The notes: a model not told the origin generated them from the sequence alone. Positions 10,367 through 53,851 are shown, counted from the first letter of the stretch. The stretch is DNA of 64,000 bases from Chloroflexota bacterium (GCA_027317125.1 DAHVFG010000002.1:880-64879); one strand, 5' to 3'. Translations and numbers: made by a program.

Positions 10367-10501
10367 GTAACTGTTCAGATTTAGGGTGGAGCAATCTTCT
10401 TGGGGTATCTGTACGCCCTCACCCCATGCCCCTCTCCCACAAGGGAGAGGGGCATGGGGTGAGGGGAGGGACGCCCCTGCACCCATACTCTGAACGCTTA
10501 C
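10367..10501. mobile_element. MITE copy B (one-module form)
   Basis: TIRs gtaactgttcaga / tctgaacgcttac. 8-bp repeat AGTACTGA at 10359-10366 and 10502-10509. That flank is itself part of a palindrome, so a TIR extension cannot be excluded here. Core ccctctcccacaagggagaggg. Confidence 0.8.
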
Positions 10502-15164: not shown

Positions 15165-15200
15165 CCCTTGCAGCACCCCTTATCTGAACAGTACAGTTAC
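15165..15200. repeat. Right-end remnant of an older MITE (E-like subfamily)
   Basis: cccttgcagcaccccttatctgaacagtacagttac ends in ..tctgaac..ttac at 15200, directly abutting the AAAGCTAT target of copy C. No recognisable left end. Confidence 0.45.
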
Positions 15201-15208
15201 AAAGCTAT

Positions 15209-15443
15209 GTAAGTGTTCAGACTCAGGGTGGAGGGGCTAGCTTAGCCCCCTCTCCCTTCATGGGAGAGGGGGTTTGGGGGTGAGGGTGCGTAACGGTACG
15301 CCTCCACAGCTACTCCTTGCAGATTGCTACACCCCAACTCCTCTAAAAATGAGAAGGGTAGTAGTATAAAGGGGTGCTAAATCACTCGTATTTTCATTCG
15401 TAATGGTGACCCATAGGGTCATGGCTTACTCTGAACACTTACA
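15209..15443. mobile_element. MITE copy C (one module, ~90-bp extra internal segment)
   Basis: TIRs gtaagtgttcaga (15209-15221) / tctgaacacttac (15431-15443). Perfect 8-bp TSD AAAGCTAT at 15201-15208 and 15444-15451. Confidence 0.85.
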
Positions 15444-15457
15444 AAGCTATTCATACT

Positions 15458-15486
15458 GGACATAGACCTCGTAGAAGCGTACGATA
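15458..15486 (+). promoter_or_regulatory. Putative sigma-70-type promoter of the iolB operon
   Basis: TGGACA (15458-15463), 17-bp spacer, TACGAT (15481-15486). The -35 starts 6 bp after the MITE C TSD. iolB ATG at 15565. Confidence 0.5.
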
Positions 15487-15564: not shown

Positions 15565-16470
15565 ATGCGCCAGTACAACGCAGATAACTTGATTGTTCAC
15601 CCGGGCAACTCATCTGAGCCTGATGTGGTCGTGGAGGTGACCCCTGAGATCGCCGGTTGGAACTACATTCACTTCCAGGTGCGCCGCCTTGAGCCTCAGC
15701 GCTCCTGGGCCTTCAATACCTCTGACAATGAGCTTGCGGTTGTGGTGCTGGGCGGCAGCCTGAGCGTCGCGTCGAACAGAGGCAAATGGCCGCAGGTGGG
15801 GCAGAGGAAGAACGTCTTCAGTGGCCTCCCCGCTGCCCTCTATCTCCCGCCGCACACCTCCTTCAGCGCGACGGCAGTGGCCGTCTGCGACTTCGCGGTC
15901 GCCTGGGCCTCCGCGGACCAGGATTACCCCCCCCGCCTTGTCACCCCCGCCGATGTTGAGGTTGAGATTCGTGGCGGCGATAACGCCACAAGACAGATCA
16001 ACAGCCTCCTGCCGCCCGGTTTCCCCTGCCAGAGGCTGGTGATCGTCGAGGTATACACGCCCGGCGGCAACTGGTCCAGCTACCCGCCGCATAAGCATGA
16101 CGTTCATAAAACCGACCCACAAGGCAAGCTTCTTGAGGCCGACCTGGAAGAGGTCTATTACTACAAGATAGATCGCCCGGAGGGTTATGCCTTACAGCGC
16201 ATCTATACCGCCCCCGAGTCGCCTTTGCACCGCGCCGGCTTTCCAATGGATAGTGTGCTTGTGCTGCGAGATAACGATGTGGCGCTGGTCCCTGAAGGCT
16301 ACCACCCGGTAAGCAGCCCGCCCGGCTACACCACCTATTACCTCAATGTGCTGGCGGGCAGTGCCCAATCGCTTGCTAACAGCGACGACCCGCAGTACTC
16401 ATGGGTCAAAGAGAGCTACCGGAGAGTGGACACGCGAGTGCCATTATACGATATATCAGATAAAGGTTAA
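15565..16470 (+). CDS. iolB: 5-deoxy-glucuronate isomerase
   Basis: 301-aa cupin-type protein (YPPHKHD...EEVYYY) in the position expected in an iol operon. AAGGAAG RBS. Confidence 0.8.
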   Translation: MRQYNADNLIVHPGNSSEPDVVVEVTPEIAGWNYIHFQVRRLEPQRSWAFNTSDNELAVVVLGGSLSVASNRGKWPQVGQRKNVFSGLPAALYLPPHTSFSATAVAVCDFAVAWASADQDYPPRLVTPADVEVEIRGGDNATRQINSLLPPGFPCQRLVIVEVYTPGGNWSSYPPHKHDVHKTDPQGKLLEADLEEVYYYKIDRPEGYALQRIYTAPESPLHRAGFPMDSVLVLRDNDVALVPEGYHPVSSPPGYTTYYLNVLAGSAQSLANSDDPQYSWVKESYRRVDTRVPLYDISDKG

Positions 16471-32316: not shown

Positions 32317-33540
32317 TCAGGGTAGCAAACCGGCAGTCATGTGCCATAAGCGCACCGTGCCATCGTCGGACGCCGAAGCAAGGGTCCGCCCATCTGGTGC
32401 CCAGGCGACACTGTTCACCTGGGCATTATGCCCTCTGAGGGTTGCCCACAATGTGCCATTGGCTAGCCACAAGCGCACCGCCTTATCATTGCTGCCCGAA
32501 GCTAGCAGACCCCCGGTGCGGTTCCAGGCCACGCTGCTTACCGATGCCCTGATCGACAGGTGATTGGCTATCGTGGTGCCATCCGGCTTCCAGAAACTCA
32601 CGCCGTTGCCGCCCGCCAGGGTTCGGCCATCGGGTGACCATGCGAGAGCGTCCACGTTCCCATTATTTTGTATGCTCGTGGTTACATTGCCTGCGGTATC
32701 GTAGATTTCGATATTTCCGCTCTCGTCGCCTATCGCCCAGCGGGTGCTATCTGGCGACCAGGCCAGCGCCCAGGCGGGTGTACCTCCTGCGGTGTGAGCT
32801 ACCTCTACACCATCGGCACGCCACAGCTTGTAATCGGTGGCCCCTCCGACTAGCCACTTGCCGTCGGGCGACCAGGCCAGATTGAAGAACTTGCCGCCAC
32901 TGTCCAGAGTACGCATCGTACGCAGCAAGGTGCCGTCGGGCCGCCAGAGTTGCACGGTGGGCATAGGGAAAGTCACGATCGAAGCTACAGCCAACGTCTT
33001 GCCATCGGGCGACCAGGCCAGGCCAAAGACAGTACCGGCCCCGCTGTTTATGGTGCGGGCCGGAGAGCCATCACGGTGCCACAAGCGAACGGTTTGGTCC
33101 CGTGAACCCGATGCCAGCAGGGTGCCATCAGGCGACCACGCCAGGCTAAAAATGCCGTCCGTGTGGCCTCGCAAGGCGGGAAGTGGAGTGCCGTCAGACT
33201 TCCACAGGCGCACCTGTGGGTCTCCTCCATTACTTCCCAGCGCGCCTGAGCCTGCGGCCAGGAAAGTGCCATCCGGCGACCATACCAGGCTGGTGACAGG
33301 CGTAATGATGCCGGTTAGCAGGGTTGAGGTGATTGCCGGGCCGATTTGCGTCGCCGTGGGCGGGGTGGGCGACAGGGCTTGGCTTGTGCTCGTCGGCCCA
33401 GGTGGCGTCTCACCCGCCGTGGTTTGAGCGCGGGTAGCGCTTGGGACGGGGCGGGTATCAGGCGCGGGACCAGGGGCAGAGCTGAGCTCGCAGCCGGAAC
33501 TCAGCGTCAGCAACATCACAAGGACAAGAGCGCGAGCCAT
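32317..33540 (-). CDS. WD40-repeat beta-propeller lipoprotein
   Basis: Lipobox LTLSSGC, a Thr/Pro-rich linker, and repeated WSPDG..LASGS.D.TVRLW units. Confidence 0.85.
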   Translation of the reverse strand: MARALVLVMLLTLSSGCELSSAPGPAPDTRPVPSATRAQTTAGETPPGPTSTSQALSPTPPTATQIGPAITSTLLTGIITPVTSLVWSPDGTFLAAGSGALGSNGGDPQVRLWKSDGTPLPALRGHTDGIFSLAWSPDGTLLASGSRDQTVRLWHRDGSPARTINSGAGTVFGLAWSPDGKTLAVASIVTFPMPTVQLWRPDGTLLRTMRTLDSGGKFFNLAWSPDGKWLVGGATDYKLWRADGVEVAHTAGGTPAWALAWSPDSTRWAIGDESGNIEIYDTAGNVTTSIQNNGNVDALAWSPDGRTLAGGNGVSFWKPDGTTIANHLSIRASVSSVAWNRTGGLLASGSNDKAVRLWLANGTLWATLRGHNAQVNSVAWAPDGRTLASASDDGTVRLWHMTAGLLP

Positions 33541-33591: not shown

Positions 33592-33620
33592 ATCTTATAC
33601 TATGGTGCACCACATGTCAA
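33592..33620 (-). promoter_or_regulatory. Putative sigma-70-type promoter of the WD40 lipoprotein gene
   Basis: On the minus strand: TTGACA (33620-33615), 17-bp spacer, TAAGAT (33597-33592). The -35 lies 6 bp from the MITE D TSD. Confidence 0.5.
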
Positions 33621-33634
33621 GACCAATTGAGGGC

Positions 33635-33798
33635 GTAAGTGTTCAGGTTAGGGGTATAGCAATCTTCAAGGAGTGGCTGTGGAGGCGTACCCTTACATAC
33701 CCTTACGTACCCTCACCCCCAACCCCCTCTACCTTCATGGGAGAGGGGGTTGGGGGTGAGGGGCGGGACACCTCTGCACCCTTACTCTGAACACTTAC
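33635..33798. mobile_element. MITE copy D (one-module form)
   Basis: TIRs gtaagtgttcagg / tctgaacacttac. Perfect 8-bp TSD TTGAGGGC at 33627-33634 and 33799-33806. Confidence 0.85.
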
Positions 33799-33806
33799 TT
33801 GAGGGC

Positions 33807-33907
33807 GTAAGGATTCAGATTTTGGGTTGAGAAGCTGTGCGGGTAAGAGCGGGGCGCTGCTTTGCCCTTGCAGTTACATCGTCTGTACCCTAATCCTGAA
33901 CGTTTAC
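33807..33907. mobile_element. MITE copy E (short variant lacking the CCCTCTCCC module)
   Basis: gtaaggattcagattttgggt ... accctaatcctgaacgtttac. Left flank TTGAGGGC vs right flank TTCAGTGC (6/8 identical). Confidence 0.65.
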
Positions 33908-33987
33908 TTCAGTGCCAATCAAGGTAGGCTCTTGTGCCTGGCTGTGTGGGCGTGTCACATTTTGCTACAGGCTTGTACAAAGGTGTG

Positions 33988-39485: not shown

Positions 39486-39715
39486 GTAGGTGTTCAGCGT
39501 AGGGGTGGAGGGCTAAGCCCTTGATGGGATTACAGGAGCCAAGCCCTTGTGCACTCCCCATGAGTAAAGCCCCCTCTCCCTTCATGGGAGATATACTCCC
39601 CAGCAATAAAGCCCCCTCTCCCTTCATGGGAGAGGGGCATGGGGTGAGGGCAGATGGCGCAACACCCGCACGGATATCCCAGGAAGATTGCTCCGCCCCA
39701 ACTCTGAACATTTAC
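39486..39715. mobile_element. MITE copy F (two-module form, inverted relative to copy A)
   Basis: TIRs gtaggtgttcagc / tctgaacatttac. Perfect 8-bp TSD TCTATAAA at 39478-39485 and 39716-39723. The internal segment is the reverse complement of copy A's inter-module segment. Confidence 0.85.
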
Positions 39716-39729
39716 TCTATAAATCGCTC

Positions 39730-39759
39730 TTGACAGGAGCTTGCTGCCCATGTTATATA
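39730..39759 (+). promoter_or_regulatory. Sigma-70-type promoter of the tetR-ABC operon
   Basis: TTGACA (39730-39735). The -10 is TGtTATATA (extended-10-like, 39751-39759; 18-bp spacer). The -35 starts 6 bp after the MITE F TSD. Confidence 0.65.
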
Positions 39760-44350: not shown

Positions 44351-44440
44351 CACAGGAAAAAGGCAAACTCGTCGAAAGGCGAGGACGCAAAGCCATTGGA
44401 TCTAAGGCTCATTAGAGCTATGACAGCCAGGTTGCCCGGC
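44351..44440 (+). promoter_or_regulatory. c-di-GMP-I (GEMM-I) riboswitch aptamer
   Basis: CACAGG..AAAGGCAAAC, then CUCGUC-GAAA-GGCGAG hairpin (44368-44383), GACGCAAAGCC (44384-44394), tetraloop-receptor-like UCUAAG..CUAUGA around the GGCUC/GAGCU hairpin, and AGCCAGGUUGCC (44425-44436). This is collinear with the V. cholerae Vc2 aptamer as I recall it. Confidence 0.8.
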
Positions 44441-47863: not shown

Positions 47864-48062
47864 GTAACTGTTCAGAGTAGGGGTAGAGGCAATCTGCAAG
47901 GAGTAGCTGTGGAGGCGTACCCTCACCTAGCCTCACCCTCCCTCACCCCCAAACCCCCTCTCCCATGAAGGGAGAGGGGGCTTTCTCCCTCACCCCATGC
48001 CCCTCTCCCATGAAGGGAGAGGGGGCTAGGCTGGCCCATCCACCCTTAGTCTGAACGCTTAC
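47864..48062. mobile_element. MITE copy G (two-module form)
   Basis: TIRs gtaactgttcaga / tctgaacgcttac. Perfect 8-bp TSD GCTAAGCT at 47856-47863 and 48063-48070. Confidence 0.85.
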
Positions 48063-49314: not shown

Positions 49315-50744
49315 TACGGTGTCAGTCTGGATATTCGGTTGCGGCCTTCTTCGACTATCACCAGGCGGCCTGAGCTATCGATGCCTAACCCCTGCGGCAG
49401 TTTGAGGCCCGATGTGAGGAGTTGCATCTTGCCCGTAACCGGGTCTATCCGTACGATGTCGCCGCCCAGGGAGTTGACGTAGATGCTGCCGTCTGTGCCC
49501 ACTATTACATCGTCAGGCTGATATATGCTAGCTAGCCTGGTGCGGCTGCCATTTGCACGCAATCTGTAGACCGCGTTGCCGAACTCGTCCACCACTATGA
49601 TGTTGCCATCCGGCTCAACAGCAGCGCCCACGGGCCGCACAAAGCCGGTTGCTATCGTCTTGAGAGAAGTGCCGTCGCGGCTCATCCGTAGCAGCCGTCC
49701 GTTAGGACTATCAGGCACAAGTATATCGCCTGTGGCCCGATCTATACCGAGGCCATCCACACCATCCTTGCTTGTGTTGTTCACAAGCTGGCGCAGCAGC
49801 TTTATACGCCCGGTCTGGTAGTTGATCTCGAGGATGCGGTTGGTTGCCTGGTCAGCTACGATAATCGCGCCATCATTGCTCACCACCAGACCCTCGGGTC
49901 CTGCCAGGCCACTTGCCAGCACGTGGGGCGACCCCGTCCCGCCGCTGATAACGTTGACCGCTTTATTGCCGAAGTCCCCGAAGATTATATCTCCCGAAGG
50001 CGCGACCACCACGTCGTCGGGGCTGCCGAACCCGCTCGCCACAACCTCTAACGTCCCTCTGGCCACGGGCGCTGGTGTTGGTGTTGGTACCGTAATAGGG
50101 CCGTATCTGGCTCGATAACGGAACGCCCCCAATTGGGAGAGCAGCACATCATAGGGCGCGGCGTTTTCAGGGTGCAACTCGAAGACCGCTCGCTCGAAGT
50201 ATTGCACTCGGTAGCTCTTGCCGTTCAACGCGCTCACCTCGGTGAACTCGTCAGATATCGGATAGCCTTGCTGCGCCACCCCGCCGTTTTGCTGCCAGTA
50301 TTGCAGGAAGCGCCCACCCAGTCTCTTACCCGTTTGGGAGAAGAGCACCGAGCCTGCTGAGGTATTGGGCTGCTGACCGGCTGCCCCATTCGGATACCTT
50401 TCTTTGTAGCGGAAGTCGCCCAGCAGGGATAAGAGCACATCATTGGGTGCGGCATTTTCGGGATGAAGCTCGAAGAGCGCTCGCTCAAAGTACTGTACGG
50501 TGTAATTTTTACCGTCCGTGTCGCTCTTCTCTTGCATCTGCTCGGAGATCGGATAGCCTTGCTGCGCCACCCCGCCGTGTGATTGCCAGTAGTCAAGGAA
50601 TCTGCCTTTGACGGTGTGTCCAGTTTGTGGGAAGGTGCGCGAATTGCTCTGCGCGCTGGCAGGTGCTAAAGGCAGGGCAGTTACTAAAAGTGCAAAGAGG
50701 CTCAACCCTGACAACCATGATAGCCTGGTTCTACTGCTTATCAT
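49314..50744 (-). CDS. Secreted protein: two ~65-aa tandem repeats plus a C-terminal NHL/SMP-30-like beta-propeller
   Basis: Signal peptide LSLFALLVTALPLAPASAQ. Repeats FLxYWQxxGGVAQQGYPIS...YFERAxFELHPENAAPxDVLLSxLG occur twice. Propeller-type repeats follow (G.A..PDG.I.V.D). Start at 50744 with AAAGGAAG RBS. Confidence 0.7.
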   Translation of the reverse strand: MISSRTRLSWLSGLSLFALLVTALPLAPASAQSNSRTFPQTGHTVKGRFLDYWQSHGGVAQQGYPISEQMQEKSDTDGKNYTVQYFERALFELHPENAAPNDVLLSLLGDFRYKERYPNGAAGQQPNTSAGSVLFSQTGKRLGGRFLQYWQQNGGVAQQGYPISDEFTEVSALNGKSYRVQYFERAVFELHPENAAPYDVLLSQLGAFRYRARYGPITVPTPTPAPVARGTLEVVASGFGSPDDVVVAPSGDIIFGDFGNKAVNVISGGTGSPHVLASGLAGPEGLVVSNDGAIIVADQATNRILEINYQTGRIKLLRQLVNNTSKDGVDGLGIDRATGDILVPDSPNGRLLRMSRDGTSLKTIATGFVRPVGAAVEPDGNIIVVDEFGNAVYRLRANGSRTRLASIYQPDDVIVGTDGSIYVNSLGGDIVRIDPVTGKMQLLTSGLKLPQGLGIDSSGRLVIVEEGRNRISRLTP

Positions 50745-53510: not shown

Positions 53511-53691
53511 GTAAATGTTCAGATTTAGGGTGGAGGGGCGTCCCTCCCCTCACCCCATGCCCCCTCTCCCTTCATGGGAGAGGGGGCTGTAATCACCCCT
53601 GTAACCCCGTCAGGGGCAGGTGATGGCAGATGGTGCAACACCCGCACAGATACCCTAAGAAGGTTGCTCCACCCTAAATCTGAACGCTTAC
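53511..53691. mobile_element. MITE copy H (one-module form, inverted relative to A/B)
   Basis: TIRs gtaaatgttcaga / tctgaacgcttac. Perfect 8-bp TSD GATGCAAT at 53503-53510 and 53692-53699. Confidence 0.85.
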
Positions 53692-53760
53692 GATGCAATA
53701 CACAGTAGCAATGACCAATGCACAATACAGAGTAGACAATATGCCAGCTTACTGGTTGCG

Positions 53761-53851
53761 ATAAGAGTTCAGATTGGGGGTGAGGGCGGGTGGCGGTACA
53801 CCCGCACAGCTACCTCTTGACCTTGGTTCTACCCTGAACCTGAACTCTTAC
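53761..53851. mobile_element. MITE copy I (short degenerate variant, no clean TSD)
   Basis: ataagagttcaga ... cctgaactcttac. The inverted repeat appears to extend outward (gttgcg / cgcaac), so the boundaries are uncertain. Confidence 0.5.

Follow-up and report, generated by a model that had tools for sequence, protein, structure and literature searches.

IS66-type MITEs lie at a fixed distance from predicted promoters in a Chloroflexota genome and probably stack there by repeated insertion

The DNA studied here is a 64,000-nucleotide stretch from a Chloroflexota bacterium (GCA_027317125.1, DAHVFG010000002.1:880-64879), which we call the window. It carries a family of short repeats that we read as MITEs, short for miniature inverted-repeat transposable elements, and at two loci two members sit side by side next to a predicted promoter, with a shared octamer between them. 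The original prediction for this DNA held that one promoter-proximal octamer had been hit twice at each locus. Family ends were scored with nhmmer, on native and edited sequences, against a profile built from 18 window termini, and they were typed X or Y by sequence, X-type ends beginning GGTGGAGCAATCTTC... Locus 1 lies beside a WD40-repeat gene and is laid out as follows.

32317-33540, minus strand: WD40-repeat gene (Pfam WD40 on the open reading frame, ORF)
33592-33620, minus strand: predicted sigma70-type promoter of the WD40 gene by consensus scan, with TTGACA at 33620-33615, a 17-nt spacer and TAAGAT at 33597-33592
33621-33626: spacer of 6 bp, invariant in length, separating the octamer from the -35 hexamer
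33627-33634: octamer copy 1, TTGAGGGC, promoter-proximal and probably still a usable target
33635-33798: MITE copy D, 164 bp, GTAAGTGTTCAG...CTGAACACTTAC, with its X-type end toward the promoter
33799-33806: octamer copy 2, TTGAGGGC, both the right duplicate of D and the left flank of E
33807-33907: MITE copy E, 101 bp, GTAAGGATTCAG...CTGAACGTTTAC, distal to the promoter
33908-33915: third octamer, decayed, TTCAGTGC, a 6/8 match to TTGAGGGC

The order anticipated for locus 1, running from the promoter through 6 bp, octamer, D, octamer and E to a flank matching at 6/8, was confirmed at 33592-33915. Copy D has a perfect 8/8 duplication, and its ends score 23.2 and 27.4 bits against the end model. 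The membership of E in the family, on which the reading of a double insertion had been made to depend, also held, as both of its ends match the model (18.6 and 19.1 bits, E-values ~1e-4). Around D and E the octamers match at 8/8, 8/8 and 6/8, the last agreement (at least 6/8) having a binomial chance of P = 0.0042, and the two elements are internally unrelated, with similarity confined to the terminal ~25 bp when they are aligned. In a BLAST comparison with all family copies D gave 229 hits and E had no relatives. Since E lacks relatives and its outer octamer carries two changes, we read E as the older, distal member, which fits D being the younger, promoter-proximal one. The geometry, the divergence of E and the decayed octamer together support the earlier proposal that E inserted first and D later into the same octamer. 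The reconstructed empty site would read ...GCACTGAA/GCCCTCAA-ttggtc-TTGACA.

Locus 2 lies beside a KduI/IolB-family gene and has these features.

15165-15200: C0, a putative degraded family terminus (right end), ...TCTGAACAGTACAGTTAC, with the reverse complement GTAA[CTGTA]CTGTTCAGATAAGGGGTGCTGC / GTAA[CTGTA]CTGTTCAGATAAGGGGTG
15201-15208: shared octamer AAAGCTAT, the left duplicate of C, abutting the C0 terminus
15209-15442: MITE copy C, 234 bp, with a perfect 8/8 duplication, end-model hits and relatives at loci L196, L163 and L172
15443-15450: octamer AAAGCTAT, promoter-proximal
15457-15485, plus strand: predicted promoter of the KduI/IolB-family gene by consensus scan, TGGACA-17-TACGAT, starting 6 bp after the octamer
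15565-16470, plus strand: KduI/IolB-family gene (Pfam KduI/IolB)

Here too the expected order (C0, octamer, C, octamer, 6 bp, TGGACA) was found, with C0 weak on its own. C0 appears to be a family terminus carrying a 5-bp insertion (CTGTA). nhmmer places it at 15174-15191 with E=0.8 in the window, covering model positions 5-22; the native sequence scores 6.8 bits, and with the 5 bp removed the match covers positions 1-22 at 11.6 bits. We accept C0 as a probable decayed family end because it is the best sub-threshold match in the window and its terminus, GTAA in the right orientation, lies exactly 8 bp from that of C; we estimate the chance of this placement at roughly 3e-4. The earlier claim that C0 belongs to the family is thus upheld by its rank and placement. 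The body of C0 may reach back to ~15076, its left end is not recoverable, and of the octamers expected for a double-insertion dimer only the two on the promoter side can be recovered for C0/C. Like E, C0 had no BLAST relatives among all family copies, and the two are the most diverged members of the family, which fits C0 being older and C younger and promoter-proximal. The empty site would have been AAAGCTAT-tcatac-TGGACA.

Copy C belongs to a composite subfamily, in which the canonical element minus its last ~11 bp is fused to a promoter-side module of ~107 bp. This module, at 15336-15442 (…CTCTAAAAATGAGAAGGG…CCATAGGGTCATGGCTTACTCTGAACACTTAC), provides a new terminus and is found elsewhere at 92-93% identity (L172 8450-8560; L196, L154, L205).

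Duplication of a segment, or unequal recombination involving copies or octamers, could also place two elements in tandem, and it had been named beforehand as a result that would overturn the double insertions. It is formally possible for near-identical pairs, and at other loci some pairs have members of equal length (L172, 182 bp each). At the window loci we rejected it: the alignment of D (164 bp) with E (101 bp) is confined to the ~25-bp terminal repeat that they share, and C and C0 differ likewise. We give this origin of the stacking next to no credence.

Nine copies were delimited in the 64-kb window (family total 9-10, 91-234 bp), and perfect 8-bp direct repeats flank seven of them. Their termini, GTAAnnGTTCAG...CTGAACnnTTAC, yielded 23 pattern matches with one mismatch allowed against 4.3 expected, and a repeat finder joined the copies via these ends and a G/C-rich palindromic core. 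Being short and non-coding, with inverted ends, 8-bp duplications and multiple dispersed copies, they have the features of MITEs. For the family ends we combined the window with metagenome loci, ~0.86 Mb in total (metagenome part ~0.8 Mb); the metagenome loci are those among the matches listed and were drawn by a single-end scan, without reference to flanks. A scan of a genome collection (species-representative genomes, abutting ends) gave loci L001-L114, mostly from other lineages and again among the matches listed. The end profile finds 228 termini, ~200 of them in metagenome loci, with the inverted ends GTAA...TTCAG, and GTAA is present at 209 of the 228. Metagenome copies are up to 93% identical to copy A of the window, and the closest MITE relatives among the matches listed are in Chloroflexia/Chloroflexota metagenome-assembled genomes (MAGs). 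Together with the closest protein homologue, which is 79% identical and from a Herpetosiphonaceae MAG, this makes a Chloroflexota host probable.

Autonomous relatives of 1.4-1.6 kb, with the same termini, 8-bp duplications and one ORF containing DDE_Tnp_IS66 and zf-IS66 domains, were found at L207, L021, L096 (Ktedonosporobacter) and L063. At L207 (542-2005) the element is 1464 bp, has the ends of the window MITEs and contains one long ORF, whose 478-aa product matches DDE_Tnp_IS66 (E=7e-44) and zf-IS66 in Pfam. L021 holds two copies, of 1565 and 1529 bp, and L063 one of 1432 bp, each with a single IS66-type ORF. Within the 64-kb window we found non-autonomous derivatives only and no autonomous copy. 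The IS66 family of insertion sequences (ISs) is described as having inverted repeats starting 5'-GTAA and an 8-bp direct repeat; the autonomous partner has an IS66 DDE domain together with GTAA ends and an 8-bp duplication. A single ORF, a length of ~1.5 kb and the lack of tnpA/tnpB accessory genes place it with the ISBst12 group, of which ISDge4 has ends GTAACTGCTCAG (GTAACTGCTCAGCA) and an 8-bp repeat (PMC12898284). Because autonomous elements with the same ends encode an IS66 transposase, and because the ends of ISDge4 are alike, the window elements are, judged by sequence, MITEs of a single-ORF IS66-type insertion sequence of ISBst12 type.

The copies share a fixed position relative to predicted promoters. 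We define the offset as the distance outward from the element terminus to the start of a hexamer, so that offset 14 corresponds to the 8-bp duplication plus 6 bp. In the window a -35 hexamer lies exactly 6 bp past the duplication in B, C, D, F and G (TTGACT, TGGACA, TTGACA, TTGACA and TTGACA), which is 5/8 intact copies, or 5/16 flanks, matching at 5/6 or better at one and the same offset (P ~1e-8 by our own arithmetic). Across the family, exact TTGACA occurs at offset 14 in 23 of 223 outward flanks and 0-2 times at any other offset; at a match of at least 5/6 the count is 41 flanks, against no more than 4 elsewhere. The same 223 flanks contain no exact TGTCAA, the opposite orientation, at any offset, and matches to it of at least 5/6 are scattered, with at most 10 at one offset. 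In the 41 flanks with a -35 at offset 14, TAnAAT follows 17 bp further downstream, and neither the octamer nor the 6-bp spacer carries any appreciable sequence information. Counted separately, -10-like hexamers number 33, 20, 5 and 3 at offsets 37, 38, 39 and 40 (61/213 flanks) and at most 4 elsewhere. A further 34 flanks have a correctly placed -10 of at least 5/6 with a weaker -35 (TTGCxx, TTGTCx), often with TGn ahead of the -10. Where the promoter spacer is 18 nt, the -35 remains at offset 14 and the -10 shifts, which suggests that the anchor is at or near the -35. Removal of near-duplicate flanks left the offset result unchanged, and the autonomous copies at L207, L138 and L193 have the same geometry. 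The end facing the promoter is X-type in 43 cases, Y-type in 5 and ambiguous in 14. Insertion is therefore both fixed in distance (-35 at offset 14, -10 at offset 37-38) and oriented. The remaining window copies are listed here.

222-416: copy A, duplication GCTTGCTG, no canonical promoter at the standard offset
10367-10501: copy B, duplication AGTACTGA, then 6 bp and TTGACT (10516-21)-17-TAAACT
39486-39715: copy F, duplication TCTATAAA, then 6 bp and TTGACA (39730-39735)
47864-48062: copy G, duplication GCTAAGCT; on the minus strand 6 bp, then TTGACA (47849-47844)-17-TATATA
53511-53691: copy H, duplication GATGCAAT, no promoter at the standard offset
53760-53851: copy I, degraded, its left end GATAAGAG… damaged and its flanks not matching

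Elements might instead have inserted at random and been retained passively just upstream of promoters, two of them surviving side by side by chance; it is plausible that intergenic insertions upstream of a core promoter cost little. Selection, however, cannot yield single-base precision (23 exact TTGACA against 0-2), a 43:5 orientation bias or an exact 8-bp spacing of neighbors. Since the elements are positioned to a single base and oriented, with no sequence preference in the octamer, we exclude this explanation, allowing it almost no chance of being right. The preference of the original prediction for active target selection is strongly supported by the same three features, offset 14, orientation and the spacing of neighbors, the last of which is described below.

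Among 36 neighboring tail-to-head end pairs, the gap is 8 bp in seven, 9 bp in three and 12 bp in one, and at least 53 bp in the others; neighbors are thus spaced at 8-9 bp. Both members have the same orientation at L172 and L177. The promoter-proximal member is the one with the intact duplication in 4/4 clear cases, among them L156, L172 and D/E of the window. At L208 (1672-2130) three members stand in a row, the third of them degraded, with TCGCACAA twice between them and TTGCACAA on the left outer side; neither outer side has a recognizable promoter. Nothing resembling target immunity is visible. In the window 5 of 26 strong promoter-like sites are occupied, from which Poisson re-hitting predicts that ~10-13% of occupied sites are doubled, and ~10% are seen in tandem (our own arithmetic). 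Because the estimate is close to the tandem fraction, it appears that no extra attraction is needed.

Apart from the tandem pairs, some metagenome loci share an insertion at homologous, diverged sites with ~85% identical flanks (L134 1681-1875 and L167 9910-10085; L177 7855 and L220 6412), so related genomes are present in the JADEYI01 assembly.

We consider it likely that a promoter-anchored, IS66-type insertion that regenerates its own target explains the stacked pairs. An ISBst12-type transposase would cut with an 8-bp stagger at an octamer whose near edge is 6 bp upstream of the -35, spanning about -42 to -49, and would insert the element with its X-type end facing the promoter. After insertion, the octamer on the promoter side would keep the original geometry to the promoter, and the target would thereby be regenerated. 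A later insertion would re-hit the same octamer, always between the resident copy and the promoter, to give the product promoter, 6 bp, T, young, T, old, T'. At locus 1 E would have been followed by D, and at locus 2 C0 by C. The octamer would be re-used because the determinant sits outside the duplication and each insertion restores the target, and the promoter-side member must then be the younger one because a second promoter-anchored insertion fits only there. We observe the family identity, the geometry, the orientation bias and the 8-9-bp spacing of neighbors; how the events were ordered and what reads the promoter we infer.

The shared octamer would also result if transposase bound to a resident terminal repeat recruited the incoming element, re-duplicating the 8-bp flank independently of the promoter. 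Such end-directed capture would resemble the inverted-repeat (IR) targeting performed by IS30 and IS911. In keeping with it, unrelated lineages with this type of end commonly have termini spaced by one duplication length: among the matches listed, GTAA...TTCAG ends abut at 8 bp in 48 junctions, at 7 bp in 19 and at 9 bp in 11, the remaining spacer lengths of 0-16 bp giving 1-5 junctions each, in lineages that include Lachnospiraceae, Solirubrobacterales, 'Dehalococcoidia' MAGs and Planctomycetota. In 26 of these 48 8-bp junctions the spacer sequence is found again as the duplicate on the far side of one element, and full-length ISs form triple-octamer arrays in Solirubrobacterales (L003, L021, L029). 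Within the family itself, the members at L155 and L180 seem to face different promoters and lie 8-9 bp apart. However, arrays of other lineages also tend to be flanked on one outer side by a constant motif, which is TTGCAG at +6 in Solirubrobacterales and in 'Dehalococcoidia' MAGs TTGACA at +7/8, and because the 8-bp peak is accompanied by such a motif these arrays do not discriminate promoter anchoring from end-directed capture. What tells against capture in our family is that single copies already show the fixed promoter geometry without any resident end, that the promoter anchor alone predicts both the shared octamer and the ~10% tandem rate, and that the intact member lies on the promoter side in every clear case. 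We therefore regard end-directed capture as unlikely.

Another route to the pairs would be transposition of a pre-formed D-octamer-E dimer as one composite unit. There is a candidate precedent at L105 (3290-6176), where two IS copies surround CCGAGGCG and the outer duplicates CTCTGCGC match; the spacer, as its reverse complement CGCCTCGG, equals the duplication of the copy at L063 232-1671, and L105 and L063 are on the same MAG contig, CBDCPE010000004.1. This suggests that a tandem dimer is able to transpose as one unit. Unit transposition would leave matching outer copies and an unrelated spacer, whereas at the window locus the spacer equals the promoter-side outer octamer TTGAGGGC at 8/8 and the other outer copy matches at 6/8. 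For D and E we therefore judge it very improbable.

Several observations weigh against promoter-anchored re-insertion as the full explanation. About one third of the elements (in the window A, H and I) have no promoter at the standard offset, and every promoter in this work is a sigma70-type prediction from a consensus scan. The far-side duplicate of C0 is missing, as no octamer matching AAAGCTAT at 6/8 or better lies upstream. Among the tandem pairs, the promoter-side member lacks matching flanks at L127 and L155, the outer flank of the distal member is unrelated at L172, and the octamers on the two sides of the IS differ at L207; for these misfits rearrangement, or a dimer moving as a unit, must be invoked. 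The members at L155 and L180 seem to face opposite promoters, and their spacing hints at some attraction to resident ends. Orientation typing of degraded ends is noisy in L127, L155, L207 and L208. D/E, L156 and L172 agree with the expectation that the promoter-proximal member is the less decayed one, and L127 and L155 do not fit it. No orthologous site that is empty or holds a single element was found: exact-protein look-ups with the WD40, IolB and LLM proteins gave no record, a cluster look-up gave just the window's own protein, and the nearest LLM oxidoreductase homologue of a flanking gene, 79% identical, is in a Herpetosiphonaceae MAG (L115) and is not syntenic. Finally, the metagenome loci come mostly from one assembly, JADEYI01.

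The simplest idea of how the promoter is read is that the transposase recognizes TTGACA directly, and strong -35 hexamers are clearly favored at offset 14. Contact with promoter-bound RNA polymerase or sigma is nevertheless preferred over direct read-out. Where the -35 matches TTGACA at only 0-2 positions, a correctly spaced -10 is still present in 8 of 120 flanks, against a background of 1.2% (P ~1e-4). Recognition of the holoenzyme would suit these insertions because the -10 is placed right despite a poor -35 and because the complex is asymmetric. We speculate that single-ORF IS66-type transposases dock on the promoter-bound RNA polymerase holoenzyme, by way of sigma region 4 or the alpha C-terminal domain, and not on DNA, a tentative proposal that may well prove wrong.

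Oriented insertion a constant distance upstream of the -35 box in sigmaA/sigma70 promoters has been described for TnGBS, the ISLre2 family and the ISKra4 group (Brochet 2009, Guerillot 2014, PMC3942029). Their transposases are Mutator-like, the distance from the repeat end is 15-17 bp, and contact with the RNA polymerase initiation complex has been proposed for them (PMC3942029). Our family is alike in consisting of DDE transposons, in its fixed distance (14 bp here), in an orientation set by end asymmetry and in leaving the core promoter intact. It differs in its transposase, which has DDE_Tnp_IS66 and zf-IS66 domains where theirs is Mutator-like (p-MULT): Pfam gives only IS66-family domains in the autonomous relatives, and not the Mutator-like transposase whose signature motif is linked to promoter specificity. 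The copies here are also mostly MITEs, and we have not seen promoter stacking described for those systems. The IS66-type family is thus a functional analogue of TnGBS/ISLre2/ISKra4 and not a member of that group, and the survey of Mutator-like elements does not mention IS66 (PMC3942029). With ISDge4 and the ISBst12 group it shares a single ORF of ~450-500 aa, the IS66 DDE domain, a length of ~1.5 kb, GTAA ends and the 8-bp repeat. Unlike that group, the window holds only non-autonomous derivatives, and phenotypic selection recovered ISDge4 from within a coding gene (PMC12898284). We found no report of target specificity for IS66/ISBst12 or of promoter-stacked MITEs, in a searchable library that is incomplete, and nothing relevant there on MITEs in Chloroflexi.

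Tandem dimers are known from other elements. In IS30, IS21 and IS911, (IS)2 dimers and IR-targeting bring ends together at duplication-length spacing, but these are identical copies and reactive intermediates, whereas D/E and C0/C are different, diverged, non-autonomous and stable-looking. The P element, hobo and R1 of Drosophila show that a site-preferring, target-duplicating element preserves its target and forms tandem dimers (McGurk and Barbash 2018, PMC5932611), and the same study cites bacterial IS dimers. There the preference lies largely in the duplicated motif, while here the octamer is uninformative and the determinant lies 6 bp outside it; for this reason the younger member should be fixed by position in our pairs, unlike in the Drosophila dimers. 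Ty3 (PMC6673722) and Ty1 integrate at RNA polymerase III promoters, where they are positioned by the transcription machinery and repeated hits are tolerated. They are eukaryotic retroelements that use integrase-TFIIIB or Pol III contacts, whereas the geometry reported here is known from sequence alone. The tandem pairs are accordingly an expected by-product of a targeting rule of an already known kind; what is new is a promoter rule precise to a single base in an unrelated transposase family, IS66/ISBst12, acting on MITEs.

A second, unrelated transposase family thereby joins the handful of bacterial transposons that target promoters to the single base. As the landing pad is not consumed, MITEs can accumulate head to tail upstream of one gene, and the order of elements within an array gives their relative ages. 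Insertions displace any sequence upstream of -42, such as UP elements or activator sites, and may rewire regulation. The offset-14 rule also locates promoters in poorly studied Chloroflexota-like genomes, predicting ~60 in 0.8 Mb. If docking on the holoenzyme were true, the strategy of TnGBS/ISLre2/ISKra4 would have arisen independently, and every active sigma70 promoter would be a reusable, orientation-specific pad for MITE arrays. With one ORF of ~480 aa and 25-bp ends, the system is a compact model for a DDE transposase that reads the transcription machinery, and a possible use is the delivery of cargo just upstream of promoters that are left intact.

Related elements in other lineages show other positions. 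In Lachnospiraceae, MITEs at L001, L045, L086 and L094 have a -35-like hexamer (TTGATT, TTGACC, TTGACG and TTGCAA) 21 bp past the duplication, which is offset 29 from the terminus, with a -10 ~17 bp later. Among the 173 Firmicutes flanks in the matches listed, offset 29 is the commonest promoter offset with 6 cases, a small number from heterogeneous elements. In Solirubrobacterales MAGs (L003, L005, L021, L023, L029) the IS66-type copies are full-length (1.5 kb) and often arranged in tandem, with one octamer present in three identical copies; on one outer side the duplication is followed by 6 bp whose last base is T, then by TTGCAG (TTACAG in one case) and G. No clear -10 follows TTGCAG in these copies, one of which adjoins the 3' end of a tRNA gene, and TTGCAG may be a target recognized by its sequence and not a promoter.

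Copies H and I are separated by 68 bp, which is not a duplication spacing, and the right flank of copy I contains an extended -10 (TGaTATAAT) whose distance differs from the standard one. Copies A, B, C, D, F, G and H mostly carry an inner near-perfect palindrome, CCCCTCTCCC-(TTCATG/ATGAAG)-GGGAGAGGGG, for example at 33723-33762; it is bordered by CCCTCACCCC/GGGGTGAGGG and could fold into a strong hairpin, whether as DNA or as RNA. As a known RNA family the MITEs were rejected, the sole Rfam match in the window being an unrelated c-di-GMP-I riboswitch. A comparison with plasmids found no similarity. The riboswitch aptamer lies at window 44352-44439 (plus strand) and scores 84 bits against a gathering score of 35, and metagenome locus L177 has a 95% identical stretch of the riboswitch region. 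Unrelated to the MITE family, a 194-nt direct repeat occurs at 50116-50309 and 50407-50600, with 74% identity and 291-nt spacing.

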